A DNA stretch of 63,783 bases, the filler included, from Reclinomonas americana ATCC 50394 (Eukaryota), in NCBI GenBank assembly GCA_048213135.1. It is 29 parts of 29 records of this genome, joined end to end, with 100 filler letters (N's around TTAATTAATTAA, not from the genome) between each part and the next. Parts side by side here need not be neighbours in the genome. Positions count along the whole stretch, not along the records: positions 10,823 to 13,368 come from AFZH01024848.1; 28 more parts are not named here. The stretch is one strand, 5' to 3'. Below are positions 1,207 through 62,557 of the stretch, one piece after another. Position numbers and translations under genes: made by a program. The stretch's first letter is position 1. Each line of letters begins with the position of its first letter. The notes beneath the pieces are model-generated. The model saw only the letters and a program-made list of their open reading frames with translations. It was not told where the DNA came from and ran no database searches.

Positions 1207-2663
1207 GCGCTAGCAGTCGCCTTGTCCCATACTGCAAAGAACAAACGACGCGATTGAGTCAACGAGCGCCCTCAGGGGGAAACCCCGGCAGACAAAACGC
1301 ACATTCATTAGATGAGAGATCCAACACCTTGACGTGCGTGAACAGTTCTGGCGCCTGTGGCAGTCTCAGGTAGCGCACGCAGTTGATGTTGGCCAAGCAC
1401 ATGTCGATGATTGCTCTGCAGCAGGCAAACCCCATCGTGAGTCACACACACACACACATATGCAACATCGAATGGTCACGCTTACGCAACACTTCTCCGA
1501 GCCAAGCATAGTAGCGAGACACTTGCCACGTGCCACCTGGGCCATCTGGATCCGTGCCGGCATACGCAACGATACCGCCAAAGGCCACCACCAATTCAAG
1601 AGCAACGGCTGGCACCAGACACGCCCACGCTGCACTCCTGTCGAACGCAGCAGGCGGCACACTCGGTATGTTGCCTACTCCCACGCCTTGTGCATCTTCG
1701 GCACTCGACTCGTATTTGCGTCGCTCAATCACAAATCCATCTTTGGTCACCAAAAACTATGAGGAACAACAGACAGCATTACGAAAAATGTACAGCACAC
1801 ACGCACGCACCGCCGTCAGCTTCAGCAGTTACGATTCTGTCAACCGACGCCTGTGCTTCTTTCTCGAGAATAGCACGCGATTCAGGCCAGTCGTCGTCAA
1901 ATGCCACAGACACACTCACAGGGTGCACGCGAGAGCGCACGGCCGCAATCAGCGCTCTCACCACGGGAGCGGACAGAAACATGCCTGCAGAAGAATATGA
2001 GACATCAAGGGTGCGGCAGCAACAACAACGGGTACAGCACCCCACCATCAAGGAGCAACTTGCGCACGCGGTTGTCGGGCTCCGCCAAGTGATTCACAAT
2101 CGTACACAACGAGTCGAACTCAATGTCCGTATCTGCACAAAAAAGGTAAGCGTCAGCAATGGCACAGCGCACGGACGGGAGTCACACAATAACCTCCAAG
2201 GTCCAATTCCTCCAGCGCAGGCAATTCCATCAAATCGGAAATGGCGCACACCAACAGGCGAAGTTCCGACGGCGAAATGGCACAGAATTTGCAGTCTCTT
2301 AGAGACACGGATCGAACACACTTGGTGCGGTCCATGGAGTCCACAATGTGCTTCAGAGACGTCGCTGAGATGTCACACTCTGCACGTGGATGCAACATAA
2401 GAACTCTGACGACTGCGGCGGCAACATGTCTTCAACACACCCAGCAGGCCAACAGTTTCGAATCGCTGTCCAGCCAACAAGTCCTTGAGCTTTCTTGGGG
2501 CATCGCTCGACAGATTGGCAAGAGTCGTCTTGCACATTTCCAATGTTGTACAGGTCTTCGGCAATCGACAGAAATGCAGATACTCGAGCACACGGGAGAC
2601 ATCGCCAGGAGACATGTCGACACCTGCAATGCCGAGTGAGCAACTACAGACAGCAAGCAGCTG
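1207..2663 (-). CDS. Spliced gene fragment with LRR-like segment
   Basis: LKHIVDSMDRTKCVRSVSLRDC...LMELPALEELDLG (ORF 2153..2398). Exon structure not fully resolved. Confidence 0.4.
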
Positions 2664-10722: not shown

Positions 10723-10868
10723 NNNNNNNNNNNNNNNNNNNNNNNNNNNNNNNNNNNNNNNNNNNNTTAATTAATTAANNNNNNNNNNNNNNNNNNNNNN
10801 NNNNNNNNNNNNNNNNNNNNNNTGTTGTCTCCTCCAACTACCTCTCCTCCTCGTCAACCGAACTGTGT

Positions 10869-10917
<49 letters not shown>

Positions 10918-10927
10918 ACACATGTAG

Positions 10928-13330
10928 GCGTGTTCCGGTGAGCGACACTGTGCGCTGTGTGCTGTGTGTGTGTGTACATTCGTCATGTTGATTGTTCGCT
11001 GCAGCAATGCCAAGGCCGGTGCTGAGTTGGTGACCAAGCCGAAGGATGTGTACGCCGATCTCCCGATCGATGTGCTCACGCTGGCCGACGTTGCGTCTCG
11101 CTCCTCATGAGCAGGTTTGAGTGTGTGTGTGAGGAGAGAGAGATCTGAAACAGAGAATGCACACAGTGCTTCCGCTGCGGCCTGGGACTCAACCGTACTG
11201 GCAAGGCTCTCGGGTGTGTTTCCGCGATGTGACGCAGTGTGTGTGCGTGTGTGAGGTTGTGGGCGCTCACACACTCTGTGCAGTCATCGCCAGGAGGGTC
11301 CGTACCAGTGGATGACGTACGAGGAGGCCGATCGCCACATTGCGCAGTACGCTGCTGGTGCGTGCGTTCCCATGCGAGAATGGTCGATGGAGAGAAGCTC
11401 ATTGTGTGCGTGCAGGTCTGACCCACCTGGGACTGCAGCCGCGTGCTCCGATTGGCTTCTACGCCAAGGCAAGTCATCGACCAGGTGAATGAATATGCAT
11501 TATCGTGCGACTGATGGTCTTTCGTCGTTTGCAGACTCGCTTCGAGTGGCAGTTGGTGGAGCATGGTGAGCAAACGGGAGGAAAGGGAGGGAGTCAAGGG
11601 TAAGTTTCTCACTCGTTTCACAGCGTGCTACCGTCGCAACATGGTCACTGTGTCGCTGTACGACACGCTCGGCCCGAATGCCGTGGAGTTGCGTCGTGTT
11701 TGCGAATCATCTGTTTTCCCTTTCGTCTGTGATCTAACGGACGTCCTTCGCCCCATGCAGGTACATTCTCGAGCACTCGTTTCGTCGGCTTGTCGCTCGT
11801 GTTCTTGTCTTGACGTTTTCCGTTCCTCACACACCTCCTGTGCGTGCACGACAGTGAGTGCCAGGCTGTGTTGTGCGCTCCCGAGTGCCTCGCCAAGGTT
11901 TTCCATCCGTTCTCGAGCGTCTCTCAAACGTGGCGCATGCTCACCCTCCCTTGATGCAGCTCCTGTCCACCCTGCACCAAGTGCCCCTCGTGCGCCACAT
12001 CATCGTCATCGACAATCAGGTGACGGAGAATGACAAGGCCGCTGTCGCCGCCGCCGGTCGCAACATCCTCACGCTGGAGGAGCTCGGCCGACTGGTGTGT
12101 GGTGTTTACCGCGCGCATGCGGGCGGGACTGATGAGTTTCTGATCTCGTTGTTGCGACAGGGTGCGGAGCATCCGTCGGAGGATGTGCTCCCGTCGCCGC
12201 AGGAGCTGGCCATTCTCATGTACACCAGCGGCACCACTGGCGTGCCGAAGGTGAGCATTGCAAGAGTGTGTTCGTTTGTGTGTTATCGTGCTCACTGATC
12301 GACGCAGGGTGTCATGATTCACCACAACCACATGGTGGCTGCGATTGCTGGTTGGTGCTGCGTGTGTGAAAAAGACCGGGATTCGTGTCGGGCTGCTGAC
12401 GCTGATGCTGTGTGCAGGTGCTGCCAGCAACATGCGTCGCCTGAAGACGTGTGATTGCATCCTGGCGTTCCTCCCGCTTGCTCACGTGCGTAACCAATCA
12501 ACCTCTTGCTCTCCTTGTATTATCTGTGCTCACATTTGTATCATTCGTGTGCATTCTTGCGAACCAGATCTTCGAGGTGCGTCTGCGCTCCCCCGAATTC
12601 ACTGGCTTCCATTGTCACCGACTCTTATAATCTCGCTTCATTTTGCACACAGCGCGTGATTGAGAACTTCTTCCTCATGTGCGGCAGCTCCATTGGCTAC
12701 TACAGTGGGGTGCGTAGAACAGCAGCAGCAGTGGCCGGCCTGAACCTCGGCGATGCTAACTTGCTTTGCTTTCCCCGCAGGACCCGCGCAAGATCAAGGA
12801 CGACTTGGGTGCGTGCTGTTCAATGTGTCACTCACCCGTGTGCCTTTGCTCACTCGTCGCGTCATCGTGCAGGTGCCCTCCGCCCGACGATCCTCGCCGG
12901 TGTGCCGCGCATCTACGAGCGTCTCCACGACGGTGTCATGGCGGTGCGTTCCGTGCAGTGATCATCTCCCATTCTTTAATTGCCATGCTCATCTCTCCCT
13001 TTTGTGCTGCTACAGAACGTGGCCAAGGTACGCTTCTGTACGATCGTCACAGCGCTCTTCCGCGTTCTCACCCCTCGTGTGTAGCTCCCGGCCCGCAAGC
13101 AGCGCCTTTTCCAGAATGCCCTCGCCAAGAAGATGTCGGGCCGCAACACGTGCTGCATGGACTGCCTGGTTTCGTGCTTTTGTCGGCGCACTTGATGTTG
13201 TGTCGCTGGCTCACCCTCTCTATGTGTCGCAGATTTTCCGCAAGACGAAGAACACCCTCGGCGGTCGCCTGCACACCATGATCTCTGGTGGTGGTCCTCT
13301 GCGCCCGGAGATCCAGCAATTCCTCCGCGC
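10928..13330 (+). CDS. Long-chain fatty acyl-CoA synthetase (ACSL/LACS family), partial, 20 exons visible
   Basis: Hand splicing gives GPYQWMTYEE, GFYAKTRFEW, VSLYDTLGPNAVEYILEHSE, AMP-binding LAILMYTSGTTGVPKGVM, FLPLAHIFER, LRPTILAGVPRIYER and LGGRLHTMISGGGPL. Confidence 0.97.
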
Positions 13331-13468
13331 GTGCGTTTTTTTCCTTTCATGATATTCATGCTGATGCTNNNNNNNNNNNNNNNNNNNNNNNNNNNNNNNN
13401 NNNNNNNNNNNNTTAATTAATTAANNNNNNNNNNNNNNNNNNNNNNNNNNNNNNNNNNNNNNNNNNNN

Positions 13469-13566: not shown

Positions 13567-13900
13567 TGAGCGCCGGAAGAATAGAGAAAGAGCAGGACGG
13601 GGAATGAGGGATAGAGGAATGGAGAAGAAGAGGAGAAAGGGAGAGAAGAGGAGAGAGGAATGGAGAGGAAGAGGGGAGGGAAAGGGAGAGACTGCGAGCT
13701 AATGAGAACGAGAGTAGAAACCAAGTTGAGCTCAAATTCACATGCTGCACAATGCGCGCGAAAAATGTTGTGCGGTGGCCCTCAGCAACGGCTGTATCTC
13801 GCGCGCAAGAAACAAAAGAAATGGAAGAGTGGACGAGAGGGTAGAGAGAGGAGAGAGGAGAGAGGGAGGTGAGAGGGATACACACACAAACGCAACTGAC

Positions 13901-18200: not shown

Positions 18201-18737
18201 ATGGTGAAGAAGCGCCCAGCGAAGGACTTTGAGGTGCGTCTCCGTCTCTGTGTGCCTCTCTCTCTATGTGTGTGTGACGCTCACCACTGTCGGTCACAGA
18301 AACCCAAGACCAAGATCGGCAAAAAGGTGATCACTGAAGATGAGCGCATTCTGCAGTCGTTGCGCATCAAGAGTTGCGTTGTGTGCACACACACACACAC
18401 ACACACTGCATCAGTGAGCAATCAGCTCATTCATCCCTCTCTCCCACACACAGACTTTCATGTGCCGATGCCAGTGGAGCACTCGGACGCGGAACCACTG
18501 ACGCATCGACGGCATTCCATTCGTGATCTCATGTCGCTGACCTCGCACCATGCGGCCTCGGCGAGGCGCGATGCGGTGCAGGAGTTTCGCGAGCTGTTTG
18601 TGTCGCACCCGGGGTTTTGCGAGTCGCACACGGCGGCGGCGGTGCAGTGTGTGGCGCCGCTGTTGGCCGACTCGGATGCACCGGTGCGCAAGGCTGCCAG
18701 TGCGTTCTTTCTGCATCTGATGACGGGCGTGTCGACG
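18201..18737 (+). CDS. IPI1: IPI1/TEX10 (Rix1 complex) N-terminal region, 3'-truncated, spliced
   Basis: MVKKRPAKDFEKPKTKIGKK...PLTHRRHSIRDLMSLTSHHAASARRDAVQEFRELFVSHP...LLADSDAPVRKAA matches the Ipi1/TEX10 N-terminal pattern. Start context ACCATGG. Confidence 0.85.
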
Positions 18738-20780: not shown

Positions 20781-21530
20781 ATTCAGCCGCCCCGCCTGCA
20801 TTGCACACTCTCTCGCTCTCTCTTTGCATCTTTTCTCCCTCTATTCCTTCTCCATGCAAATCTTCACCGTATGTGTGCGTGTGTGGCGGTGATTATTCGC
20901 CGTTTGCTGATCACGCTCCTTCCATTCCCTTTCTCGACTTTATCTCTCTCACGCCACCTTTTTTCTCTCTCTCTTCTACCTGTCTCCCTTGCTCTCCTAC
21001 CGCGCGCCTCTCTCCTTTCCTCCATCGTTGCATATCACCGCCATTCATATTCCTGCCTTCTTTCTCTGTCTATATATCGTTTCGGCTTTCTTCCTCTTCC
21101 TCGCGCGCTCCTTTCCCACTGCATCCTCTCCTTCTATGCCTCTTTCTCTTTTTCTTCCTCTTCCCACTCCCGCTCTCTTTTTTCTTCCCTGCTCCTTTCC
21201 ATCTGCTCCTTCTTCGCCTCTTTCTCTTCTTCTTCCTCTTCCCACTCCCGCTCTCTTTTTTCTTCTCCACTCCTTTCCCTCTGCTCCTTCTTCGCCTCTT
21301 CTTCTTCCCCACTCCTGTCCTTCTTCATCCCTCCCTCATCCCTCTCCCCTTCTTGCACGTTGTGCATCGTCCGTCACCTTCCTCTTTCTCTACTCTCTGC
21401 CTCTTNNNNNNNNNNNNNNNNNNNNNNNNNNNNNNNNNNNNNNNNNNNNTTAATTAATTAANNNNNNNNNNNNNNNNNNNNNNNNNNNNNNNNNNNNNNN
21501 NNNNNAGAGAGAGAGAGAGAGAGAGAGATA

Positions 21531-24143: not shown

Positions 24144-26681
24144 TAGCCGAAGAGGACGATGTAGACAGTCGACAGCGACTGCGGCGGCGACCTCGTTTGT
24201 TGCAGCGTCGTCGACTCTCTTCCTCCGCCACGCGGCATCAAAAGGAGGAAAAGGAAGAGGAGGTGGAGGTGGAGGAGGCGGAGGTGGAAGCGCCAGAGGA
24301 GATTGATGAGGTGGACGACGCCAGCGACGTGGAGGCAGCAGCCACCACGCTCGACATTAGCAGCCTCATGGCGTTGCAGGATTTGCTGGCGGAGAAAGCG
24401 CGACTGGATCGGGAGATTGCCGATGTGCGAGACAGGTGCGCCGGCAGTGATGATGTCTCTTCTCATTCTCATCTTGCCCCTCATATTTGTTCCCTTTACA
24501 AAGGGCCTACTACATGCGAACCATGCTGAAAGCGCGCAAACACAAGAGCCCCAAGACACCACCTCCCGTAGCACCGCTGTCGTCACCGGATTCACCCCTC
24601 GCTCTCTTGTCCACCGTTCCCCCGTCGCAGTCGTCGCCACCTCCTTCTCCACCTCCCGCGGCTCCCGCACCGGCAATCAAGGCGCCACCACCAGCACCAG
24701 CACCGCCAGCAGTTCCACTCGGCTTCCTCACCTGGCAGCCACCATTGCTGTTCGCTGGCCACTCATGTGACGACGACTTTTCTACGCCGCGTCGACCTCC
24801 GTCTGACGTTGTTGTCGCCCCAAGTCATGCGAGTGAGCCGCCGATGCCACCACCACCAGCGCCGCCGCCGCCACCAGCATGGACAGGCGCGGACGTGGTG
24901 CCGGTGCGGACAATGGAGCTGCCAATGTCGGGTAGTGAGAGCAGTTCCGACGAGTCCAACAGCGCCTGCGTCGGGCAGACTCTGTTGGACGAATCGCTCT
25001 CTTCCTTGGCTGCTGCTGCTGGCGAGAGGGACGAGAGTCAGCAGCGGGAGGTGCTTGATCCTCCGCGTCCTCGCAAGCGACTATTCACGTCGCCCGATGG
25101 ACCAGCGGTGGCATCTGTCGACGACCTCGGTCGTGGTGTGGACGAGGAGGAGGAGGAGGAGGAGGGGCAGGGGGAAGAGGAAGAGGACGAAAGGAGGCAA
25201 GATAGTAGAGCACAAGCTGGCACACTCTCCGCGCAGCCTCGCGGACATGCGGTTCGACGGCGACGACGGCGAGCGTGCGTCTATTGTTGTGCTGTTGCTG
25301 TGCTTCTCCTCCTTCCATCCCACTCACCCTCCTGTGTGCCACAGAGTGGATCTCCTTCGCACCGCCGCAGTGTTCTCGCAGTCGTCTCTCTCATCGCTGG
25401 ACTCGGCCCTGGAGGCTCGACCGATGAAGAGACCAAAGTCGCGCACGCTGTCCGAGGTACTTGCAGACAATGACTCTAATTCGGCGCCGGCGACTGCCAT
25501 TCCCGCGGCCGGCTTCGCGTCGGTGACTGGCGCGTATGGTTCACGATGGACTGCTGCGGAGGTGATGGTGGCACTGCCGCTGTCGGATCCCGACGATGAC
25601 TTTGAGGCGCTGATTGAGTTGGCGGACGATTTGAGCACACGAGACAGTCACGATGCTGATTGGTGTGCGACAACGGGCGACGAGGGTGATGAAGATGAAG
25701 AGGTGCAGCAGCGAATGCTGGAGCTCTACGGCGGGGACGACGTTGTTGAGCTCGGCGACGACGACTCTGACGAGCGTCGTGAGATGCAGCTGGATGAGTA
25801 TGACGGCGACGGGGAAGCAGAAGACAGTGGCGCGCCTGCGGCATTTCGGGCACTTGCAAAGCGCGGCATGTCGCCGCCGCTGCGTCGCAAAGCATCTCCT
25901 TCGTCACAGCAGAAGCAGGAACGGGAGCAGGAGCAGCAGGAGCTTTCGTCGCCAGTGTTGACTCGTCGTGCTGTGGTTTGTTGTTTTTTGTACGTTGTCG
26001 ATGGATTGTTTGGTCTCCTCACTCTCTTGTCTTCTCCTTCTTTTGAAGCGGTTGTTGCCAGCCGGCGTTGTGGACGTGGACGCGATGCCTGAGATGTGCG
26101 CCACTTCGATTCTTCCTTTCCGGTCACGTGAGTTTTCTTACATTGATTTGTCGGCGCAGGTACGTTAGAGCTAGTTCACCGCCGGATGGCGCGAGCGAGA
26201 GGCTGTCGAGCGCATTCACTGGCGATGCATCAGGTCAGCTGTTCTCTGCTCCATTCACCGTTCATTGTTCTCCCTTTGTCACCCATCTCACGACCGCAGA
26301 GCATCCTATCGTATTTGACGTGCCAGTGGCCGTCGGAGCCAGCCGACAGCCAGCTGCTTCTGGTCGTCGACTGCGGAATGCGGTTGCCCTGCCTCCACGT
26401 TGCGCAGGCAGTTCTATCTTTCAATTCACAATTCACTGCGTGCTCACTCTCCCTCCACGTCGCAGCATCGCCCTCGTCCAACATGGAGGCGCCAGTGTCG
26501 CACTTTGGACAGCGACCGAATCCTCGCCTGATAAAGGGCGGCCGTGGAAGAGGCGCAGCAGCATCTCACATGTGCGTGCCGCACTCGTGACCCTTTGCAT
26601 GCATGAGTATTCGTAACGAGTTGTCTCCACGATCACAGTCGGCCATCGCCTCGTGCCGACGGCAGTCCGGGCAGTATTACG
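24144..26681 (+). CDS. Copy B of the low-complexity spliced gene at 2764-5318
   Basis: Collinear over the whole contig with nearly the same ends. Exons are near-identical and introns more diverged. Confidence 0.6.
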
Positions 26682-26786
26682 NNNNNNNNNNNNNNNNNNN
26701 NNNNNNNNNNNNNNNNNNNNNNNNNTTAATTAATTAANNNNNNNNNNNNNNNNNNNNNNNNNNNNNNNNNNNNNNNNNNNNCTGAC

Positions 26787-29156: not shown

Positions 29157-29195
29157 CTGATTCCTGTCCTGATGTCGTCGCGGAAGTCCCCGGTG

Positions 29196-29201
29196 AGTCT
29201 A
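29196..29201 (-). promoter_or_regulatory. Putative actinobacterial -10 box TAGACT for the acyltransferase
   Basis: TANNNT consensus about 40 nt upstream of the proposed start. Confidence 0.45.
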
Positions 29202-29247
29202 CCAATGGCTCGCCGGACACCGGTTGGTCGCCATCAGGCTCGCCCCG

Positions 29248-34737: not shown

Positions 34738-35939
34738 ATGCCGCTGCAAAAGGTGTACATGACACATGAGGTGTTCCTCACGGGCGTGCTGCACGCGCTG
34801 ACCACCGAGAAGGAGGAAGTGATGGGATTGTGCCTCGGGTCCATTGATCATGTTGCGTACGCGTGCTCTCTCTCTTCCACACACACACACACGCACCACA
34901 CGCACTGTGTAGACACCTTGACTCCACTGCTCTGCGCTGTGTGCGTGCGCTGTTGTCCGAGGAGTCGGGCATTTCGCGCACTCACTCACCTCCTTCTCCT
35001 CGTACACAGGAGACTAGTGTGTGCCGCGTGTGGGGCATCTGCCATCTGGAGCGCTCCGACCGACGCACCGATCGTGTGGAAGTGAGCCCGGAGCAGCTGT
35101 CACTGGCCGCAGTGGAGGCAGAAGTTGCGCGTGAAGATAGAGAGACACTGGAATCATCACAGTCACTCATTTTTCTTCACAACAGCGCGTGACAGCGGCC
35201 ACTGGGCGTCCCACCTCTGTGGTGGGCTGGTACCACTCGCACCCGCACATGACATGCCGCCCGTCGCACGTGGATTTGCGGTACCAGGCCGACATGCAAA
35301 TGCTCGACTCGGGCTTCATTGGCCTCATCTTCTCCGTCTTCAACGACGACCAGCACGGCAAGAGCCGCATTCAGGTGCATGCGTGGCAGTCGGTGGAGGA
35401 TCTGCAGCCGGCGGCGTCGAGTCATCGCGGCGGATCGTCGTCCATGGCCGGCATGTATGGCATGGGAATGACCGAGGCGGAGCTGCTGGAGTTTACGGCC
35501 ATGGAGGCGCAGGCGTCGTCGGATGGGTGGCGTGAGCATGAGGTGCCGATTGAGTTCTTTGACGACGAGCCCGGCATGTGCGATCTGTACAAGCGTCTCG
35601 TCACGCTCATGCGTATCTTTTACACCGAGGAGAAGAAGGTGTATCAGACGCAGGTCAATGTGGCACTGCCGGGCACGCCCGCCACCCCTCCCGTCACCGG
35701 ACCACAAAAGAGGTACGCTTTCTCTCTCTTCCTCGTTGCGTGTGTGGATCTCTGAATACTCTGCGCGCAGTGCATACACGCGGTTGCATCACGCCGCCGT
35801 CTTCCAAAAGTCGGCCTCCAAGCTGCTCGAGTGCCTGTACGCGCCACTCAAGCGCGCCCTCACCAACCTGCTGCTGGAGAACCAGAGGAAACTCACTCAT
35901 CTCGATCAGGCGCTGGCCGCTGCTGCAGATGACAAGTGA
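34738..35939 (+). CDS. BRCC3: BRCC36 JAMM/MPN+ K63 deubiquitinase
   Basis: HALTTEKEEVMGLCLG, DRVEVSPEQLS...EAE|R, VVGWYHSHPHMTCRPSHVDLRYQ (intact HxH-x7-S-x2-D), GFIGLIFSVF. TGA at 35937-35939. Confidence 0.95.
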
Positions 35940-37308: not shown

Positions 37309-39806
37309 GAAATAAACACTCGCCATTGACTCTGTCTCTCCACTTCACCTTGCTGCGCCACACTCAACGCCGGCCGCTCCAGTGACAACATGTGCCGCAG
37401 CGCCAACTCGGCCGTCCGGGCCTCGTTGAACAGATCCACTGCCACACCATTCCCTGGATCAGCACTTCAAATCACACACACTCACACATCAACCCCTCCT
37501 GCACGCAACATGCATCATCTCGAAACACCAGCAACTCGTGTCCGAGATGGCGCGTTAGGTGCACACCGTCGGGACTCCACGCCCATGTCGTGTGCATCAA
37601 CACATTCCCCACCACTCTCCGCGTCGGTGCCACCAGGCGGCACACGGGCACACCCTGCGTCACGTCCCACACCAACGGTTCCTCCCTCTGCAACAATGTC
37701 AGCACTAGAAACCCTTTCTAACTCCCTTCCCCGCCGCTCGCACGCAACAAAAGTGGTCACGAGCAAGTACGCTCCGTCACTCGGTCGAAAGAGGACCGAC
37801 GCCACCGAGGTGGCGTCGTACTGCAAACTCTGCAGCACCTCGCCAGTGATCGCATGCACCACCAGCACCGAGCCAGTGCGCGCGACCGAGGCAAAGATGG
37901 GCTCGGTCGGGTGCCAGCTGAAGCGATGCTTGTACATGTCCTCGTTTGACACTCTCATGTCGGCCAGTCGCGTGCCCGTCGGCACCCACCGGTACGCACT
38001 CCCATCGTCGGCAGTCTCACACTGGTACGTGACAATCACGTCGTTGCGCTCCACCATGGCCAACAGCCGGTTGTTGGGGTGCACGTAGCACATGAGGCAG
38101 GCGGCTCGGTGGGCCTGCGTCGTCTCTGGCACACTCTCGCCACTGCTCAGCGACATCTCCACCGTCTCGTCTGTGCCGATCACCAGCAACCGCGTGGGAT
38201 CCCCGCTCGGCGACGGTGCGCACACCACAAACACTTTCGACTGCAACGCCTGCATCATGCGCATGCCGCTCGGATGCAACGTCCCCACCAGCCCTGCGTG
38301 CTCGGGAGTGAGGCGCGACAGGCTGCGAAGAAGAAGGAGGAATGCGAGGAGCACGCAACGTCGTTCTTTCGGTACCCCTTGGCTTGTGATGTTCACGAGG
38401 GCCAGAGCGCAGCTCTGATTCTCCGCGCCCGTGGTGAAAAACGGGTGCGCCCGTCCGGCGAGGATCCCCAGGAGACGGTGGGTGGGTGCGTGCCATTGGA
38501 AGTAGTCGGCCTGAGGAGAGGTCGGGAGGGAGAGGAGGACGGGGGAGGGAGAGGGAGGACAAGGGGGAAGGAGGAGATGTGAGATAGGTGATGGCACAGG
38601 AGACAGAACGGCATGATTATGTCGGCCCAGGGACGTGGAAAAAGAGATATAGAAGAACGAGATGCATGATGAAGGAGAGCACGAGACAACATCCAGCACT
38701 GAGATGACAATTCCAAGAAAGAAGGCCCTCTGCAGCAAGGATCCAAAGTACACCCCTTTTCCTCCCCATCTCCTGCCATTCTCATCCCCTTCTCCTCACC
38801 GCCACCGGCACCACCGCCACCCTCTTCATCTCCGCCTCCCCTCTCGCATTCACCGCCATCATCTCCCACACCAGAACCTCCGACTCGCCCATATGCCTCT
38901 CAGAAAAGAAGAAGAAGAAGAAGAAGAAGAAGAAGAAGAAGAAGAAGAAGAAGAAGAAGAAGACGGAGGAGGAGGAGGAGAGAGAATAATAAGAAGAAGA
39001 ACAAGAACCAGGAGCAAGAAGAGAAGGAGAAGTATGAACAACGAGAGCACGAGATAGCTCCAAGGAACAAAGGCCCTCTGTATCAACGATTCAAAGAAGT
39101 CCCCTTTTCCTCCTCTTCCCATCCCCTTATCATCCCATTTTCCTCCCCTTTTTCCTCACCGCCATCGGCACCACCGCCACCCTCCTTATCTCCGCCGCCT
39201 CCCCTCTCGCATTCACCGCCACCAAATCCCACACCAGAACCTCCGACTCGCCCATATGCCTCTCAGAAAAGAAGAAGAAGAAGAAGAAGGAGAAGAAGAA
39301 GAAGAAGAAGACGGAGGAGGAGGAGGAGAGAGAATAATAAGAAGAAGAACAAGAACCAGGAGCAAGAAGAGAAGGAGAAGTATGAACAACGAGAGCACGA
39401 GACAACTCCAAGAAAAGGGGGCCCTCTGTAACAATCCCCTTTTCCTCCTCTTCTCATCCCCATATCCTGCCATTCCCATCCCCTTCTCCTCCTAAGCACT
39501 CACCGCCATCGGCACCACCGCCACCCTCTTCAGCTCCGCCTCTCCTCGCCCATTCACCGCCACCATATCCCACACCAGAACCTCCGACTCGCCCATATCC
39601 CTCTCACTAAAGTGCCGCGGTCGTCCTCGCGTCGCCCGCACCGTGCACAGCAGCCATCCTCGGTGCACCGACAAGAGAGATCGCGCGTTGCTGGCAAATT
39701 CGCGCGAGTGTAGGAAGAATGGCGTGGAGGCGTCGCTGGGGAAGGAGTGGAGGTGGTGTAGGAGAGAGAAGGCGGGAGAAGGTGCGTCGTCGTCTCCACT
39801 GCTCAT
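37309..39806 (-). CDS. Divergent WD40-like beta-propeller protein, spliced, 3'-truncated
   Basis: CYVHPNNRLLAMV, FSWHPTEPIFASV, VLFRPSDGAYLLV, WAWSPDGVHL, EPLVWDV. Confidence 0.65.
38670..39610. repeat. Tandem triplication (~360 nt) of an exon end, donor site and intron, with (GAA)n tracts
   Basis: Three copies encoding SER[D/H]MGESEVLVW...RVAVVP[M/V]A, each followed by GTGAG on the minus strand (about 39503, 39159, 38799). Confidence 0.9.
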
Positions 39807-42556: not shown

Positions 42557-44910
42557 TGAGATGCCATCATTGTGGCCACACAGCTGCTGACTGTACTGTC
42601 GCGCTTGCAGCTGTGCGAGGCACAGAGCATGAATGCTCAGGAGGTGGTCGACCTGATGCAGGCGCTCACCAACGTGTTTAACCTCAATCCGTCGGCAGTG
42701 GAATTGCCGGCTGTCACACAGCGACTGGGAGCGATTGTCGGCTTGCTCACTCGCACGTTTCGTTCGCGTCAAGAGTTAATCGTCAAGACTGTAACTCACC
42801 GCCTTTCGTCGCAACAGCGACAACCACATGCTGCCGAAGTACGTGGTGCAGGCACTCGATCAGTGTGGCAAGGGTGCCACTGCCGTTCGAGCGTTTGCGC
42901 AGGACACGGCGCTGTTGACTGTGTTCCTGCAGGTTCGCCATGCGTAGTGTGATTTGCGCCGCGGTGCTTCCTTTCTTCCTCACACGCATGCGCTTGTTTT
43001 GCCACAGGCCTTGCCGAGATGGCAGGACTACTTGGAGCAGTTGCTGTCGACGCTGACGAGCATCACGTACAAGGCGCCGGAGACCGTGTCCATTATTCAT
43101 GTGCGCATTAGTGCAGTGGGGGTTCTACACTTGGTGGTCATCGCTTACTGCTCCTGCTACTGCAGAACACGGGCGGCACTGCCATTCTCATTGATATCCT
43201 GCGAGGCACTCGACCGCAAAGTGTAAAGACCAAGGCGGCTCAGATTTTGAAAAAGATGGCTGCCGACCCCAGGTATTTGCGTCTCGCGTGGGGCTTGCTG
43301 TGCGTCCTCCACACCTAACCCTCTTGCCGTTCAGTGTGGGCGCGTCGGTCAATGCGGCCTTGCAGCAATCGGGAGTGTGGCAGCAGTACTCGGATGTTCC
43401 TGTCGCCTCGGTGGTCAGCGTGTCGGGCACTGGGTCCAGCAGCAGTGGCTTCGGAACCATGGCTGCGTCGTCAGCAGCGGCAGCGGCGGCGCCGGCGCCA
43501 GACACGCGTCGACACACTGTCGGCGCGGGCCTCGGACCAGTGCCTGTGGTCGGTGCTGGCGGTTTTGGGTGAGTCATGTTGTGATGATCTCTTTCTTCTC
43601 CTCTTTTCAAGTTACTGAAATCGTGGACCGACAGCTCGACGGGGGCGACCGGTGCCAGTGGGTTTGGTGGCAGCTCGAATCTGCCGCCTCTGCCTTCCAG
43701 TGGTGGACTTCCACCCATGGGAGGTGGTCTTCCGCCAATGGCAGGTGCCGGCGGCTTGCCACCGATGCAATTCTCACCGCAACAACCGCCAGCCGCACCG
43801 CCTGTTGCGTCTCGCACACTTTGTTTGTGTGTCCATTTGTGAGAATTTGCTGACAAGCGTATATCGATGCAGCGGCCTGCATCAATGGCCTATGCTGCGC
43901 CTCTGCCAGCCTTCAATACAACGCCTGCGCCGCCACCCATGTCGTCCATGATGCCCCCAATGCAGCCTCCGCAGCTTCCTCCACCGCAGCAGCAGCAACA
44001 GCCGGCGTTTGTGTTGCCTGGACTCGCACCACCCACTGGCATTCCGTCCATGACGGGTGGCGGTATGATGATGGGCAGCGCGGCACCACCACCACCGCCA
44101 CCGCCGATGATGTCTGCAATGGCGGGTCAGCCGCAGCCGGTGCGCGTGCTCCCCGTGGCACCAGCTCCTGCTGCCGCCGCCCCTGCCCCGGTCTTTGGTG
44201 CGCCACCTGGCCAACCGCAGCCTGTGCGACTGCCGATGCCACCACCGCCGCCGAGTGCGGCAGCGGCAGCGCCACCGGCGCCTCCACCACGCTCGAGCAT
44301 GTCACTGCCTCCGGTTCCCTCGCCACAGGCCGGAGCACCACCACCACCACCACCACCGCCTCCGCCACCACCGCCACCACCACCAGGGTTTGTTGATCGA
44401 CCGACATGCACTGGAAGAGAGAAAAGCTGACTCGTTACTTGTCTTGAAAATGCAGCGGTGCACCACCACCACCCCCACCACCGCCACCACCCCCACCTGG
44501 AGGCGCACCAATGCCCCCACCACCAGGCGGTGCCGGTCGCGGAGCGCTCTTGGCCTCCATTCGTGGCGGAGCGAAGCTCAAGAAAGTCGCGGTTTGTAAT
44601 GCATTAGGAGGACATGAAGAGAGTCCCACCATTGCTCACTGCTTCCCGTCTATGCACAGCCACCACCCGAGCGACCACCCCCCGGACGGGTACGCACCTA
44701 ATCATCTGCCCCCACCCGTATGACCCGTATCCTGCCTGACCAATAACTCGTACACAGGGAGGAAGCGGCAGTGGTGCCAGCAGCGCAGCAGGCGGATCAG
44801 CAGGAGGAGGAGGAGGAGGACGCGGACCTCCAGCAGGCGGCGGCGGCGGCGGCATGATGGGCGAAATGGCCGCCGCACTGGCAGCTCGTCGCAACAAAAC
44901 CGGCCAATGA
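42557..44910 (+). CDS. Helical (RME-8/DNAJC13 C-terminus-like) domain + polyproline + WH2 + VASP-like F-actin motif; 5'-truncated
   Basis: Spliced SVKTKAAQILKKMAADPSVGASVNAALQQSGVWQQYSD, long poly-Pro, GRGALLASIRGGAKLKKVA (WH2, 44535-44591), GGGGMMGEMAAALAARRNK. TGA at 44908-44910. Confidence 0.75.
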
Positions 44911-45175: not shown

Positions 45176-47691
45176 GCAATTGGGTGAGCGGAGCAGTGTG
45201 TGGATGAGAGAGAGCACGCAGAGGACGCACCAAACGACTCGCTGATCTTCTTGTTTGGTGCGCGAATCTCCAGCCGCGTCAGATCCGACGACAGGAACAC
45301 GTGCCTTGCCGCGCATGGTACTGGATGGCCGTGCAACTGTAGGGAGGCGCGATGATTCTCAGTCAGTGTGCGGAGGTGACAGAGCGCAGCGGACGAAGCG
45401 AGCAACGTACCATGCACGTCTGGGTCGATTTCGGGTTGGGCTTGAACACCTGGCAACCGCGCAGCATGAACAGGACCACGCCCTGCACTTGCTCGAGTTC
45501 GTCACCCTCCAACATTGGCGACTGACGAAGAGAAAGAGAAAGAATACATGAGTAATCGAGAGTGTACAAGTAACTCGAGCCACGCTGATGCAACCAACCT
45601 GCGGGCCAAACAAACGCAGTCCCTCGGGCGGCAACAGCTGATGCAAGTGGCCGTTCGCTTCACTCGACACACCGGTGACCTGAGTCTGTGTCGGCAGACC
45701 TACACACAAGAGATGAGCGCAAATGGCGAGAGAGAGAAAGAGAAGAATGTCGAGTGCTGGCATACCTTCGCTATCGGAGCTGTCGTACCCGTCGCCGAGA
45801 TTGTCAAACATCAGCGCGTCGTCGCTCGGCAGCGTCATTCTCGACGGGAGCGACGCATGTCCGTGACCGTTGGACGGCGCTGGCCCCCGCGACGACGATA
45901 ATGAGGATGAACCCTCACCACGGGCGCTGAGATGCGTGGGTGCCGTCGACGACATGGCTCTCGGGGTGGAGTACGCGCTGGCCGACTTGACTGGCGGTTG
46001 CATAGGTGCTGCTGCGGCCATGGACGACGGCGCCGCGGAGCGCAGTGGTGTACGCGCCGCACGCGATCTTGAGGCAGACTGAGAGCGTGTGGCCGAGGTG
46101 GAACGACCGTTGCCACGCGCCGAAGGCACCTCCGGCTCAATGTCGAGCACACGGCGATCGCGACCCGGACTCGCCGTCGGTGACATGTGGTGCAAGAAGG
46201 GCGAGGCTCGTCCCTGCGTCACACACGTCAGACCCACTCATCCATCCCTCCCTCCCTCACACTGTCAGACAAGACACTCACCCTCTTGCGACTGCTGTCG
46301 CGGTACATGGCGTCGGGCAGCTGATCGCCATTCAAAATGCCGCACACCAACTGATTCTCCACAAACGGATCGGCGTTGTACTCTGGCGGCAACTCCTCCG
46401 GCGTAAAGCCCTCATCCAGACACTGCGAAGCACACACAGGAGACCGATCAGGAAAAAAAACTCTTGACAACGCGGGGCAAAACACGGACTGCACGCACCT
46501 CGGCTCGTTGCTGATGGAACTCGGCTCGCATCTTTTCAAAATTGCGGTGCGCTCGAGCGGCCATCGCACGCAGCTTCTTGTCGCGGGCGACCGAGTCACG
46601 CTGCAACGCATCGTCGTGCTCCACCGCCACACGCTGCGACTCGTCGCGCAGACGCACACATTCGGCAGCACACTGACGCAAACTGCAGTCGCAGACAACC
46701 AACACCGTGAGCACACCACAACACCAACGGAGCCAGAGGGATTCGATTGAACACGCAACATCTTCGTGGCATTCCTCAGCTTGCCCTCCCGCACGCCCAG
46801 CTCCTGGTCAATGTCGGCAACACTGGCGGTCAACTCCTGCTTTAATCTGGAAATCTCCCTCCGTGTCTCGTCGCTGTTGGAACACTGGTCAGCGACAACA
46901 GCTTCCTTCTCACTTGTGAGAGAGACACACGGCACGCAACATTTGACTTTGCGCCTGCTGCGTCAGGAGTGAACACGTGCTCAATTCCGCTTGCCGGTCG
47001 GCCACCACCGACTGCAGCCACGTCAGGTGCTCGTCGGCCTTGGCCAATGCCTCCTTTGATCTCGCCAGCTTCTCACGATGCTCCTGCAACTCCTTTCGCA
47101 GCACGCGGATGCGCTCGTGCGCCGCTGCCGTCTCCTCCTCCATCTTGCGCAACTCGTCCTTCAGCTGGGCCACCTGCGCCTCGCCCTTCGACAGCTCCTC
47201 GGTGCGTCCGTCCTTGGCACTGTCTTGAGCCGCAATCACATCCTGAATCGCCATGTTGAGCTCCGAATGCAGCAGTCGCAGTTGCTCCTCCGCCCGTCTC
47301 CGATCCGAGATGGCGTCCTCGTATTGTTGCACGACCTCACAAAACGCTGCAATGCGCTGCTGCGTCTCTTGTCGGACGTGAACCTGTTACCATAAACCAC
47401 ACAAGGAGGGGTGAGCGAATGCACAACAAATCAGGTATCACCCCCTCCCCCGCGAGTTGTTGCCGCACCTCAATGTCCTTTAGCTGGTCCTCCATCATCT
47501 TGAAAGCCAGTTCGGAACCATACGTGTGCTCCATATCACGGAACTCTCCCTGTGCGACAACGAGACGGCCGTGAACATCCTTGCAGACGCATGCACAGAG
47601 GCGCAGAGGGTGCACGAAACCTGCTTTGATCGCGCAATCTCCTCCAGCCTAAACTGCAACTGTTGTCGCAGACTGATCTCCAGTTGCTGTC
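45176..47691 (-). CDS. Coiled-coil protein with possible C-terminal PH-like domain, partial, spliced
   Basis: Long heptad regions (ORF 46910..47332), then FMLRGCQVFK...RHVFLSSDLTRLEI. Confidence 0.55.
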
Positions 47692-47989: not shown

Positions 47990-50304
47990 TTTGAAAGCTT
48001 CGAATTCGTCAACGACACAGTTGCGTCGCCGGACATGCAGAGGTGCGCGCCTGATTGTGACACATCAGTTAATCATTGATGATGGCACAGAAAATGCAGA
48101 GGAGGACACACACCTCCAAGTGTCGACGTTGCCTGCGTTGATGTGAGCTGCAAAAACGAGGCGATGCCTTCGCCATTGACGGCCACCGATCCACCGCAAC
48201 CATAGACCATGGAGCTCGCTATCACGTCGCTCACCGACGACAGTGTGGCAGTGTCTTGGACTGCTACTGCGCCGCCGATGCCCTGTGTGGCAAGCAGAGT
48301 GTGAGAGACTCTCGACCGGAGGACATCGATTCATTCCCTTCGTGAACGCAACGTTACTGGCGATAGAGCTCACAATTGTGTTGTTGAAGGTGTTGGCGCC
48401 CGAGGATTCACGAAGCATCCACGTGCCGCCTACGCAGAATGCTCATTGGCACAGGTGGCAAAGAAACGCAAACAAAAAGACAGCTGTACAAATCACACCA
48501 ACCTGACAGTGCAGCATTGCAAGTGTAATAGTGACTGCTGTTGCTCGTCAGCTGCGCGGTTCCCACAATATAAAAGGCTCCTGTGTTATCGCACAAAACG
48601 AGCTGCGATCAGAATGTGGCTAGGACAACGCAAACAAAGCACGTTGAATTTGACTGCACACCGCCGTGGGCCGTATATGCCATGCAATTAATGAACTGCG
48701 AATTGATGACTTCAACTACGGAGACGTCTTCGGCTGCCACCGCTCCACCGTACGCTGCTTGGCTGTGGCGGAAAATGTAACGCAAAGTGTTTGGTATGGT
48801 GGCAGGAGCCGCACATACACACACACATTGAGAGAGAGAGCGAGAGAGAGAGAGAGTTTACCTCTGGAAAAAGTAGGCCCTGATGACACACGATTAGCAA
48901 AGTGGCAAGACGTGTCGAGACAAGGTATCTCGGCGCGCAACTGATTCAGCGAGAGCTTGGAGTTGGAGGACAGCGCGAAAGATCCACCGTGCAAGGCCGT
49001 ATTCGTCACCATTCTGTCGAGAATGGAAGTCCACGAGGCTTCCACAGCCAACATGGCCGCACCACTACATACACATTAGTGAGCGGAAAAAACAACAGCT
49101 GGTCAGCTCGACATTACGCAACGCCGTGTTGGCAGAATTGCTGGTAAAGTTGCACGAGGTGCTGACAACGATGGTTGGCGTGTCAATGTAGACCGCACCG
49201 CCTTCTTTGATGGCTCTGTTGTTCACAAAGTTGACCTGGGCAACCCGCAGTGTCAAGCACGATATAAAGAATGACAATACAGGGCGAGCGCTGCGCAACT
49301 CGCACAAAATCGATGGCACCCCTGACAACCAGGGCTCTGCGGCAGGCGAGGAGGTTACAACCGACTACTGAGAAGGAAAGCGCACGTGCGTATGCAGTCA
49401 TCAGCTCACCCTCCATTAGTCGCCTCGTTGAACATGAATGTCGAATCGCCGACTCCAACCTGAATCATGTCGCCTTTCATCCCCACAGCGCCGCCAGCAT
49501 CAGCTGTGCAATTGAAGAACTGGCCGATAATGGCACCACTGCCATTCTCGACCATGATGCAACCACCTGCATGTGCGTGAGCGAGCGAACAAGAAATGTA
49601 GCTGGATAAAGTATCTATTTTGACTGACCATTCGTAGCAATCGGGCTGACATAGCCGGGAGGTACAACGACATTGACAGAGTTGAGGAAAAACTGCATCA
49701 ATTGCACCGGCGATGAGTGCGCACAGCAGCGCAACGGAGACAGATCACGACAAAGCTTACAGACCGATACGTCTTGGAAAATGAAATCGCGCACGCTGGC
49801 GTAAACGCCACCGCCGCCAACCTATTCATGGGAAAGCAGGTCAGCAACAGTCTCATGAATTTGGGCGTGTGGGAGCCAATCTACGCAACACTGTACGTGG
49901 CGCTGGAACGGCTACGCACATCGGCAATACCGGCAGGAAGGTTTACCGAGAACTGGTGCTGGTTCACCGTCAAGTAGCGAGCGAACAATCGCATGGTGGT
50001 GGAGACAAACATGGCAGCTGCACACATAGCGAATTGGCATGAACGAAGGATCCCACAAGCGCATCAAGCAGGCACTGTTTTCCAACAGACCTCCGCCACC
50101 GAGAATGACATTGGACGGCACCGAGTTGCCAGCGCTGCACAAATCGAACGAGATGAGCGCAAGCGACGTGTGCAGAGCATCAACACGTCCGCACACAACT
50201 CTGGCGTGCAGATGACATTCACGTCAACGACGTTGCTGGCAAACAAGCCGCCGAGACTGAACAGAGAATCGGTGAGGGTGTCGACGTTGAGATACACAAA
50301 GAGG
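47990..50304 (-). CDS. POMP-repeat (GGA[IV]/FxxN) right-handed beta-helix surface protein, partial, many introns
   Basis: FVNNRAIKEGGAVYID...CNFTSNSA, TNTALHGGSF, HSQAAYGGAVAA. Confidence 0.7.
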
Positions 50305-50568: not shown

Positions 50569-52300
50569 CATTGTCGCCGGCCGCGCACCCCTGTGTGCTG
50601 CCTCAAAGGCAAACAACACCTGGTACATGTCGTGCAAGAGTCGCGGCATGTCCACCTTGGCGAAATCCAACAGCAGTGTGGTTGGCTCCAGCAGTTCGTC
50701 CGCCAGCGGTCGCTGTATGTGCACGCACGATAAGGCGACCTCGCATGAAGGGAAATGCTATTCCTTGTGAGATACAGACGCAACATGAGACACCTGCAGC
50801 GGCTGTCGCACTTGCACAAAATGACCGCCGCCCGTGTACGGCGCAAAGCCGCGCGTGTCACCAATCCAAAAACTGTACGGATCACGCACGTGGACCGTGA
50901 ATGTGCCACTGTTCAGCTCCTCCATGCCCTCGACCAGCGTGAAGCGGACGACGGAGCCGTCGCCGAGTCCGTGTCGCTGATCGGGCGACACGGTGACGAG
51001 ACCACGCTCACTCTGTTCGACCCCAATCACCATGCCCTGCGCCAGCTCCTCGCCCGTCGGATCCGACGACACCCACGACTCGCCGACATCGACAAAGCAC
51101 AGCGCCGACAGGCCACGCATCGCCGCCCACACCAGCGGCACCGAGTGCGCGCGGCAAATCGTGTTCCACGCCACCAGCTCCTCCAGGGCTGTCGCAGAGT
51201 GAATGAGGCGGGAAGGGGGAGAATGAGGAAGAGAGGGAGACTCACACTTGTGTTCGGTGACGACCACGGCGGAGAAGGTGGCGAGCATGTGCTCCTCCAG
51301 TGCGCCTCGCAGCAAAGTGACACGGGCAGTGGGGTTGAGCTCCTCGATGGCGCGCAGTGAGGCCTCCCCGCGACTCACTCCGGTGGTGACGTGGGTTTCG
51401 CGGAGGAAGAACTAAAGGGGGGAGAGGGGGAGAAGGAGGGAAAGGAGGGGAAAGGAGGAGGGAGGAGAGGCGAAAGGGAGAAGGGAGGAGACGAGGCGAA
51501 GAGATGAACATGCAGAGAAGGAGGAAGAGGACGTGAGAAGAGGGAAAGAAGAAGGAGAACAAAGCACGCACAGGAATGAGAACGAAGATCAAAACGAAGA
51601 AAAAGAACATGGATGAATAGGAGCAAGACAAAGAACAAGGAGGATTAGGAATACGGGAACGGGGAGAACGAGAAGGTGTAGAGGAAGAACAACAGCAAGA
51701 AGGAGAAGAAGAAGAAAAAGCAGAAAGAACACACAGTACACCAAAGGGGAAGAGGAGGGGATGATAGAAGTGGAGAGGCAGCAGATGAGCGAGAAAAGGC
51801 GAAGTTGACGAAGAAGAACAAGGAGACAATCAAGAAGGAGAGAGACAGAGGAGGGAGAGGCGAAGTGAGTCACAGTTGACACTCTGCAGCTGAAAACCCA
51901 AACAAACCTGCGTGTTCAGATCCGCCATGCAACACGGCCGATGATCAATGTCGGCAATGGTCAGACTGGAGATGCCTGACAACACCAGGTTCTTGGCTGT
52001 TCGCCACAGGAACACAACAAGAGTGTGAGAAGGAGGAGGAGGAGGAAGAAGAAGGCGAAGGACAGGGTAGAAGAAGCAGAAACGGAGATAACTGCGAAGA
52101 ATGTGGGGTGGGGAGGGGAGGAGGATGAGGAAGAAGAAAAAGCAAAGAATGAAAGGAAGAATGAGAAAGGATGCATAGAAACGTGAGAAGAATGCAGGGG
52201 AAGAGGATAAAGATAAGGGGAGGACGAGGACGTAGAGACGAAGAAGAGAAGGAGAAGAAGAGGGCTGACGCAGAGTACTGAGAACACGCACATTAGAGAT

Positions 52301-60061: not shown

Positions 60062-62557
60062 TGCCACGTTGGCTCTGGGACGATACGACGTATCGGAGGT
60101 GGACGGTCTCTCGCACGGCGTGGACGATTCGTTTGGCTTGCTTCGCGCGTTGGTCTCCAGCGGCAATGTGCTGCACGTGGGCTACAAGGGCGACTACACG
60201 GGCGGTGTTCATTTGGCCGACAGCGCGCTGGTGGTCGACGGGCACAAATCGGTGGGCATCGGCACCATGACGCCCGAATCGAGGTTACACGTCGACGGCT
60301 CCGTTCGTGTGCCAAAGGGATTGCCGACGACATCGGCCTCCAACAGCGCCGGTTATGGATTCATTGGCGATGGGTGGACGGGCATGTTTGCCAGTTGCGT
60401 CACCGTTTCTCTGTCTCTTCGCCGATCAGGACGCCGACTAACACGCGTTGTGCAGCTGATTCGACGGACCACACATTGACACAGCTATTTCTGACGGCCG
60501 GCGGCGTGCAACGGCTGGCTCTTCTCAATGATGCATCGCGACCGGTGGTGGTTCTCGGCGACGTGGACATTACCGGTAGCGCAATTCATCTGGCCACCTC
60601 GCCGGACCTGTCGCCAAATGGCGACAACACCGTGATGTCGATCGACAACACCGGGGCCGTGGTCATTAATCCGTTGCGTTGCTTTCGTGTTCAATGCTCC
60701 CTCTATCCACTGACACGTGCGCCGACTGCAGCTCCGACTCGTTCGACGGCGGCATCCGTTTCGGCACCGATCGCATTGTTGTGCCCGGCGGTACCTCGCG
60801 ATTTGTCGGCATTGGAGAGGTCAATCCGGCCGCCTCGCTGCACGTCAGTGGCGGCACACGCACCACCAAGGGCAAGCCTATAAGTAACGTGAGCGATTTC
60901 GGCTACGCCTTCGATGCCGACGGCGACACGGGTCTCTTTGCCGTCGGAGGTGTGTGTCTCTCTCCCATTGTATGTGCCATGTATCTTTCCTGGTCGTTTC
61001 GCATTGACGATTCCACGCAGGCGGCACAAGTAGCGGAAGCGAGCTCCATCTCATGGTCGACGGCTTCTCTCGTCTCGTGATCCCCAGCGACCCCAATCTG
61101 CCCATGTCGATTGCCGGCGATACGCAGCTGATCGGGTCTACTGTCCGTCTCGGCTCCAACATGCTGGTGGCCATGGAGGAACGCTCCGACACGCGCCTGA
61201 GTGTGAATCCACGTAACGAGTTTGTCGGTGGCACGGTGTTTGGCGCCGATCAGGCGTTCTTGGACGGCCCCACTGGCCACTTTGGCGTCGGCAATCTTGG
61301 TTTGGTGGCACTCGGCACGATCCAGTCGGCGGGCGGTGTGCGCGTGGCCAAGGGCCTGGCCACCACCGACACAGATGATGTGGGTCTCAGCTTTGGCGCC
61401 GATGGCGACACGGGCTTTTATGCCGTTGGCGGTGTGTGATCGAGTAGCGGTGCTCTGTTTGCGCGCACTTTCACAATACATACTGACCTACTATGTCATG
61501 TGCACAGGGACGACGTCGAGCGGCAGCACGTTGCATCTGCGCGTCGACGGCAGCTCACGCATTACCATTCCGCCATTGTCCACCTCGCCAGTGACCGTGA
61601 TTGGTGACGCGTTGATTACCAACACCAAAGTGTTCCTTGGCTCTGCCGCTCAGTTGGCGCTCGAGGATGTGGCGGGCGTGCAGCACACGCTTGTGGTGAA
61701 CAGTGGTGACTCGTTTGCCGGTGGTGTGATCCTCGGCAATCAGCGCGTCTCCGTCATACCATCCGGCGGTCTCACACGCGTGGGCGTCGGGCGGTCCGTC
61801 TCCGCAGCCCCCGCTGGTACCCTGCAATCTGAAGGTGGCATTCGTGCGAGCAAGGGCCTTCCACTCATGGACACTGACGACGTTGGCTACACGTTTGCAA
61901 GCGACGGCGAGACCGGCATGTTTGCCGTCGGAGGTGTGCGAGTGAGAAGGCCTTGTTGTTGTTCGTGCATTCTGCTGTGGCGACTCATCACAATCCGCAG
62001 GCGACAACTTTAGCTCCTCGTCGTTGCAGTTCGCCGTGGACGCGAACGTGCGTCTCAGTATTCCTCCACTGACAACTTCACCTCTTCGCCTGTTTGGTGA
62101 TGTGGCCATCACCGGCAGCACCATCACGCTGGGGCCATTGGACTCGGACGCTGTGACCTACTCGACCGTCAGTAACCGCCTTATTTTCAACCCGAACCTG
62201 GACTTCTCCGGTGGCTTCCAATTTGGCGACGTCATGATCCTGGAGACCGCCTTGAGTGACGGTTTCCTGGGAGTCGGTCGCGGACTGGCTCTCACCCCGG
62301 CGGCCACCATCCACTCTGCTGGTGGCGTGCGCGTGCGCAAGGGCGCTCCGACCTCGAACGAGGCCAATCTGGGTTACGCGTTCGACCTCGATGGAGACAC
62401 GGGCTTTTTCGCCGAAGGAGGTGCGTGCTAATGCACAATCCAATCTCCCACTGTGTGCCTGCCGCATGTAACCTCTTGAAAAATAGGGACGAGTTCGGAC
62501 GGCAGCGATTTGGTTCTCCGCATCGACAACCAGGTCCGTCTCCGCATCCCTCCCATC
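60062..62557 (+). CDS. Spliced repeat protein with five ~140-aa phage-tail-fibre-like units, both ends truncated
   Basis: Introns 60394-60455, 60673-60731, 60950-61020, 61432-61507, 61934-62000 and 62421-62486 give one open frame. Each unit carries [VF]G[IV]G...[LI][HQ]xxGG[VI]RxxKGxP....[VL]GYxFxxDG[DE]TG[LMF]FAxG. Confidence 0.85.

Follow-up and report, generated by a model that had tools for sequence, protein, structure and literature searches.

Do introns of Reclinomonas americana ATCC 50394 use, beside a common GTGCGT-type donor, a second class of 5' splice sites in which the same motif starts one base later? This question was raised by an ACSL gene (contig 10823-13368) in a 63,783-base window of the genome assembly GCA_048213135.1, for which a sequence-only reading had listed recurrent GTTGCG(T/C) and GTTTCGT donors. 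The window, by which we mean the whole stretch of DNA that was analyzed, comprised 29 contigs of 1.0-2.6 kb in rough order of size. Its eukaryotic part, 22 contigs with ~49 kb and many short introns, was the basis of the donor statistics. All gene models presented here are our own computational predictions. These models confirmed, at the level of predicted gene structure, that GTTGCG(T/C) and, less often, GTTTCGT serve as 5' splice sites in ordinary GT-AG introns with a short length of ~60-80 nt, and the listed GTT sites were very probably true donors.

GTT donors in ACSL and in motif-blind gene predictions

Gene structures were derived with a protein-to-genome spliced aligner, in which all GT and GC donors were treated alike, and with a gene parser that combined codon log-odds, intron composition, an acceptor profile, and a length penalty. 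The parser was seeded with long open reading frames (ORFs) and nine GTG introns, and donors were scored just as GT or GC. Parser v1, in which the donor motif was unscored, predicted 180 introns. In the strictly blind v2, positions +3 to +10 were kept outside every score and 191 donors were predicted, while v3, self-trained with a donor profile learned from the blind set, predicted 146 introns. Since this training inflated p-values, v3 was used for description only. Strand separation by the parser was clear (222 vs 6 bits on the ACSL contig), and a parse with limited intron length reproduced the hand-made ACSL model. The outcome was parameter-dependent: when introns as long as 350 nt were admitted, micro-exons were merged and spurious donors appeared, a problem that was mended by the length limit or penalty.

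The hand-curated ACSL model (10938-13232, plus strand) contained 19 complete introns of 52-82 nt within ~2.3 kb and encoded 374 amino acids without a stop. Five of its introns started with GTT (11090, 11688, 11779, 11898, and 13169) and the other 14 belonged to the ordinary class, a curated count of 5/19 that came close to the 4 of 20 ACSL donors given previously without quite matching it. In an alignment with homologue P0005 (residues 65-389), the model was gap-free at junctions 11688, 11779, 11898, and 13169. The GTTGCGT intron at 11688..11760 (73 nt, phase 2, AVE/YIL) and the GTTTCGT intron at 11779..11854 (76 nt, after an 18-nt exon) were both recovered by the limited-length parse and by v1, v2, and v3. 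A GTTTTCC intron at 11898..11959 (62 nt), which had not been listed before, was found by the limited-length parse, v1, and v2. The GTTTCGT intron at 13169..13232 (64 nt, phase 0, MDCL/IFRK) was predicted by all parser versions and was also gap-free in an alignment with P0002. The remaining GTTGCGT intron, at 11090..11166 (77 nt, phase 0; v1 and limited-length parse), lay outside the P0005 alignment; it was required for the stop-free 374-residue model, with an in-frame TGA 18 nt downstream.

Two micro-exons occurred in ACSL, one of 9 nt at 12568-12576 (ATCTTCGAG, encoding IFE) and one of 18 nt at 11761-11778, and the intron density of this gene contrasted with the exons of >1 kb in other genes of the window. 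ACSL also harboured a GC-AG intron (11469-11534, plus strand; donor AAG/GCAAGT) that was needed to join IGFYAK to TRFEWQLVEH.

Several junctions, in BRCC36, in UBA1, and at four ACSL sites, were pinned exactly by protein homology. In BRCC36, the 62-nt, phase-0 GTTGCGC intron at 35124..35185 (plus strand, EAE/R) was predicted by v1 and v3 and was supported by structure-chain alignments: in 6r8f_A the exon ending at 35123 extended up to residue 105, and the second residue of the following exon, which starts at 35186, corresponded to residue 107. In the 5cw3_A alignment the same exons met at 79/80. Because the exons abutted at consecutive residues, the donor at 35124 was fixed to the base. In UBA1, a 72-nt, phase-0 GTTGCGT intron on the minus strand (50713..50784, VSH/RPL) was predicted by v3 and agreed with Pfam profiles. 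The E1_FCCH profile (70/70) stopped 7 residues short of the exon end at 50785 and the second residue of the following exon matched position 9 of E1_4HB, which left 8 residues for E1_4HB positions 1-8 and thereby fitted the donor at 50784 rather than the GT 9 nt upstream. It was this upstream GTGTCTC, at 50793, that v1 had chosen; homologue P0001 was too distant for placing the UBA1 donor.

All 12 listed positions carried the GTTGCG[T/C] or GTTTCGT motif assigned to them, and v1, v2, and v3 recovered 9, 7, and 11 of them, respectively, with 11090 as the site missed by v3. Even parsers blind to the motif picked GTTGCG most often. In v1, GTTGCG was the top donor hexamer (18/180 introns), followed by GTGTGT (11) and GTGCGT (9), and position +3 was T in 66 introns and G in 65. 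In v2, where GTTGCGT was the commonest donor heptamer although the motif was unscored, GTTGCG started 13/191 predicted donors, compared with 29/3528 of the remaining GT positions within gene spans (odds ratio 8.8, p = 8e-8). In v3, T occupied +3 in 59/146 donors, 57 of them GTT, and 25/146 donors read GTTGCGY.

The word itself was also commoner than chance would give. GTTGCGY was counted 52 times over the two strands, whereas 100 dinucleotide-preserving shuffles averaged 28.26 ± 5.38 and none reached 52. Relative to the gene models, 35 of the 52 were sense, 8 antisense, 7 in satellite-like contigs, where they were not donors, and 2 in bacterial contigs. GTTGCGT alone occurred 23 times in sense and 3 times in antisense orientation, a strand skew that among GT heptamers was second only to that of the microsatellite GTGTGTG. 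GTTTCGT as a word showed no overall enrichment in the window (7 vs 6.79 expected), although four of its seven sites (11779, 13169, 42757, and 47620 on the minus strand) were predicted donors.

In all other respects, introns with GTTGCG donors resembled those with GTR donors. Median lengths in the v3 set were 68.5 and 68 nt, respectively, and both classes shared a Y-R-CAG acceptor, with matching acceptor profiles. Branch-like YTVAY motifs were present in 23/24 GTTGCG and 49/69 GTR introns (v3), where their median distance to the 3' end was 19 and 18 nt, respectively. As is typical of U2-type GT-AG introns, they had GT and AG ends and their removal restored an open frame (ACSL with 374 residues, BRCC36, and UBA1). 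The U12-type donor consensus is RTATCCTT; the donors found here were GTTGCGY or GTTTCGT, and a U12 assignment was therefore rejected. An origin as an introner or repeat family was also rejected. Mean local alignment scores were 6.69 for pairs of GTTGCG introns, 6.53 for pairs across the two classes, and 6.50 for pairs of other introns, and no strong similarity was found between pairs of GTTGCG introns (maximum score 16.5), indicating that their bodies were no more alike than those of other introns and hence not introner copies.

Two contigs, 2764-5318 (minus strand) and 24144-26681 (plus strand), were 97% identical over their full length of ~2.5 kb, with few indels (14 nt, 3 nt), and from sequence comparison may represent two haplotypes or alleles or a very recent duplicate. 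A candidate donor had been reported as kept in both copies (at 26399 and, on the minus strand, at 3045) just before they diverge, and this was borne out: GTTGCGCA was identical in the two contigs, while the next 12 bases differed at 6 and differences clustered after it. The corresponding 67-nt candidate intron (26399..26465, plus strand) was predicted by v3 only; in the second contig (2979..3045, minus strand) it was supported by a v3 prediction and by the contig comparison. Differences between the paired contigs generally clustered in predicted introns.

Pairing register of the GTT donors

When predicted donors were split by their +3 base, the expected difference emerged, with GTT donors enriched for G+6/T+7 and GTR donors for G+5/T+6. 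In the v2 set, G+6/T+7 was found in 16/44 GTT and 7/95 GTR donors (p = 5e-5), and G+5/T+6 in 7/44 and 26/95, respectively. In the v3 set, the ordinary class read AG/GTGCGTG and the GTT class GT-TGCGTG, the same string one base later, such that TGCGTG occupied +3 to +8 in donors with T at +3 and +2 to +7 in those with R. The GTT class was mixed, as GTTTGT, GTTCGT, and GTTGGT donors retained G+5/T+6.

The last exon base provided a further distinction. G at -1 was absent from all GTTGCG donors, with 0/13 in the blind set and 0/18 and 0/24 in further counts, whereas in the blind set it preceded 16/31 other GTT donors and 51/95 GTR donors (p = 0.0013 and 1.4e-4, respectively, vs GTTGCG). These observations would be explained best if U1 paired with G-U-U-G-C-G-U as it would with G/G-U-G-C-G-U, one base shifted. 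Intron G+1 would then take the slot of the exonic -1 G, U+2 would form a single mismatch, and cleavage would occur at the sole available GU, which, measured from the paired block, lies one base further upstream than the usual cleavage point. GTTGCGY and G/GTGCGT introns would be removed by the same spliceosome. To this explanation as a whole, including the one-base shifted U1 register and the role of U1 proposed from donor sequences, we assign a probability of about 0.5.

Several observations weighed against this explanation. A strict shift predicts an A-rich -1 position, yet A was found at -1 in 7/25 GTTGCGY donors, compared with 38/72 for A at -2 in ordinary donors (v3), and a preference for A remained at -2 in GTT donors (21/57, v3). 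The shifted class was stereotyped, with GCG in nearly all members and GTTGAGT and GTTGTGT found once each (v1), in contrast to GTR donors, in which +4 was C in 30, A in 23, and T in 17 of 72 cases (v3). Moreover, G is rare before GTTG anyway (51/354, ~14%), so that 0/35 for sense GTTGCGY sites was only modestly below expectation. Finally, the ~49 kb on 22 contigs were interpreted through computational gene models in which a handful of junctions were fixed by homology. With respect to the -1 position, G preceded 0/50 GTTGCGY sites in eukaryotic contigs, non-donor sites included, an observation that the shift explains only partly.

The stereotyped GTTGCG class could point to a dedicated complementary RNA. 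In such a scenario, either U1, in a variant or second form, or some other dedicated factor would have a 5' arm complementary to GUUGCGY, and snRNA and donors would have co-evolved. The large share of GTTGCGY among donors with T at +3 (25/59) and the dominance of C at +5 (35/57 GTT donors, v3) are consistent with this proposal, for which the donor and U1-arm pairs of Entamoeba and Mastigamoeba, as given in excerpts of bioRxiv 10.1101/2022.06.08.495308, offer a precedent. Both donor classes, however, occurred side by side within single genes (in ACSL, in 5 and 14 of its 19 introns) and had all other intron features in common, and a variant U1 pairing in the normal register would also favour the -1 G that is absent here. 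We consider a dedicated U1 or factor unlikely.

A bulged register accounts for the same displacement of G and T to +6/+7. In this arrangement U1 would pair normally at -1, +1, and +2, a U at +2 or +3 would be bulged, and pairing would resume at +4 to +7; the G+1:C8 pair would be retained, and bulge +3 (or +2) is, in the excerpts seen of PMC4856993, a described human register. Since a bulged U leaves the exon end paired with U1, the usual -1 G would be expected, and its complete absence from GTTGCG donors, against its frequent presence in the GTR and other GTT donors, led us to prefer the one-base shift and to regard a bulge as improbable. Of the bulged register proposed in the sequence-only reading as a major donor class, the large class and the displacement of G and T to +6/+7 thus stood, whereas the bulge itself agreed less well than a shift with the 0/13 in the blind set.

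That these sites form no splicing class, and reflect a chance motif, misplaced junctions, or a homopolymer error converting GTGCGT to GTTGCGT, is very improbable: gene models were all computational, the parser misplaced some donors (50793 in v1, and merged micro-exons in the first parse), and GTTTCGT was not enriched overall, but GTTGCGY was enriched over shuffles, skewed 35:8 towards the sense strand, and picked without motif scoring, junctions were exact from residue to residue, and sequencing error was rejected because the two 97%-identical contigs carried the same GTT donors, long ORFs were unbroken, and insertion of a T would not have removed the -1 G that is missing.

Further GTT donors and composition of the window

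Additional introns with GTTGCGY donors were predicted elsewhere in the eukaryotic contigs. BRCC36 contained a second one that had not been listed before (GTTGCGT, 34852..35009, plus strand, 158 nt; v1, v2, and v3), for which the flanking JAB profile positions fitted. A GTTGCGT intron at 18373..18453 (plus strand, 81 nt, phase 1; v1, v2, and v3) lay in a gene previously named IPI1, a name for which Pfam gave no confirmation; the gene had weak HEAT-like matches. In a Pro-rich gene, the coding frame carried on across a GTTGCGT intron at 43804..43872 (plus strand, 69 nt, phase 0; v1, v2, and v3), while read-through would encounter a TGA.

Two GTTGCGT introns, both predicted by v1, v2, and v3, were located in a gene for a repeat protein (60062-62557, plus strand). 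One, at 60394..60455 (plus strand, 62 nt), coincided with a repeat boundary. The junction of the other, at 60673..60731 (plus strand, 59 nt, phase 2), was fixed by the protein's own repeats, as VINP/SDSFDGG matched the uninterrupted SVNPRNEFVGG of a later repeat. The protein had no Pfam match and consisted of ~140-residue units ending in GYxFxxDGDTGxFAxG, with an intron at each unit boundary. Four of these boundary introns had GTGTGT or GTGCGT donors, and the first, one codon earlier, had GTTGCGT.

On the minus strand, contig 47792-50304 contained five GTTGCGY donors (49889, 49299, 49122, 48941, and 48352; v1, v2, and v3), among them the GTTGCGT donor of an intron at 49822..49889. Further minus-strand GTTGCGT introns were predicted at 46683..46759 and at 13792..13896 (105 nt) by v1, v2, and v3, and at 37688..37748, 38294-38359, and 1416..1490 (75 nt) by v1 and v3.

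The contigs of the window were separated by linkers of the form N44-TTAATTAATTAA-N44 (for example at 1107-1206, 10723-10822, and 13369-13468), with a total of 56 N44 runs that in pairs flanked the 12-mer TTAATTAATTAA; the linker had stops in all six frames. The window is thus a chain of separate small contigs, and genes that are neighbours in it need not be neighbours in the genome. Four contigs (26782-29314, 55616-56806, 56907-58217, and 58318-59961) were bacterial, with 66-69% G+C and without introns, and are most likely contaminants in the assembly. They encoded MraY adjoining MurD, an ABC permease, an M24 peptidase, an alpha/beta hydrolase, an acyltransferase_3, and a GT1 glycosyltransferase, and by eye looked actinobacterial. 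Three contigs were satellite-like repeats; two of these, 5419-8072 and 18863-21405, stayed open over long stretches in several frames, carried a recurring unit containing GTGCGTGTTGCGTGTCTT, and held the 7 GTTGCGY matches mentioned above. Other gene fragments encoded a BNR/Sortilin-Vps10-like repeat protein (15019-15717), an RRP12-like HEAT protein (16874-18073), and a histone H2A with a C-terminus ending in SQSQPY (36406-36843), all on the minus strand.

A search of the window for snRNA genes gave no Rfam matches at gathering scores and, at E ≤ 1, just six weak matches to families other than snRNAs. In a metagenome scan for relatives with the UBA1 exon, 596 stretches matched the pattern and none was confirmed, and a protein search with the same exon, in which candidates were limited to exact-word sharers longer than the query, returned one distant match with 33% identity.

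Significance and comparison with known systems

A literature search for GTTGCGT or GUUGCG as a donor motif found no description of it. The suggestion of an undescribed adaptation was plausible to the extent of that search, and on the same basis a shifted donor that is the commonest heptamer, in genes that also use the ordinary class, appears to be undescribed. More tentatively, this lineage might routinely use two 5' splice-site pairing registers side by side, with about 1 in 6-8 introns starting with H/GUUGCGY, one base out of register, and up to 40% of donors having U at +3. Such use could involve either a single U1 that tolerates the shift, whose arm, like that of Mastigamoeba, probably has a G to pair with the C of GCG, or an additional U1 whose 5' arm is one base longer. 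Either, if true, would mark the first time that a non-canonical register serves as a principal donor class. An organism with a shifted donor as its commonest heptamer would offer a natural system for studying how U1 binding is uncoupled from later cleavage-site choice by U6, U5, and Prp8. It would likewise be a system for the co-evolution of donors and snRNAs, so far approachable mainly via Entamoeba and Mastigamoeba. There is a practical consequence too: for a large share of the introns in this organism and its relatives, gene finders trained on GTR donors would give wrong annotations.

Shifted- and bulged-register sites make up a small minority of human donors. Unlike the shifted-register minority in mammals, GTTGCGY was the commonest donor heptamer in the window (13/191 in the blind set and 25/146 in v3). 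In excerpts of PMC4856993, a shifted register and one with a bulge at +3 (or +2) are both described among human 5' splice sites, and U1 is noted as able to bind some way off the site that is later fixed by U6. In the shifted-register sites (Roca and Krainer, 2009, as cited in those excerpts), GU likewise occupies +1/+2, with the rest one base inward and all U1 base pairs moved by one position. In sites with a bulge at +3 (or +2) (Roca et al., 2012, as cited in the same excerpts), GU is likewise followed by an additional U, and the consensus continues one base further on; unlike in that register, the predicted -1 G was not retained in the GTTGCG donors studied here.

Donors of the GTGCGT type are described for Mamiellophyceae in the portions available of PMC2483917 and PMC3879977, and the ordinary class found here, with its AG/GTGCGT(G) consensus, resembled them. 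These portions mention no GTT class, and the algae concerned are intron-poor, in contrast to the 19 introns of ACSL. Further parallels are offered by amoebae, for which excerpts of bioRxiv 10.1101/2022.06.08.495308 report nearly universal GUUUGU donors with a U1 arm ACAAAC in Entamoeba, and GUGCGC donors with a U1 arm ACGUAC in Mastigamoeba, and thereby provide a precedent for joint change of snRNA and donor. Like Mastigamoeba, an intron-rich relative of Entamoeba, R. americana had a GC-rich, GUGCGY-type consensus and, like Entamoeba, it had U as a normal donor base at +3. In Entamoeba, however, G+5/U+6 occurs in the normal register within one motif, whereas in the window analyzed here, where just 6/146 donors (v3) started with GTTTGT, two registers occurred in the same genes.

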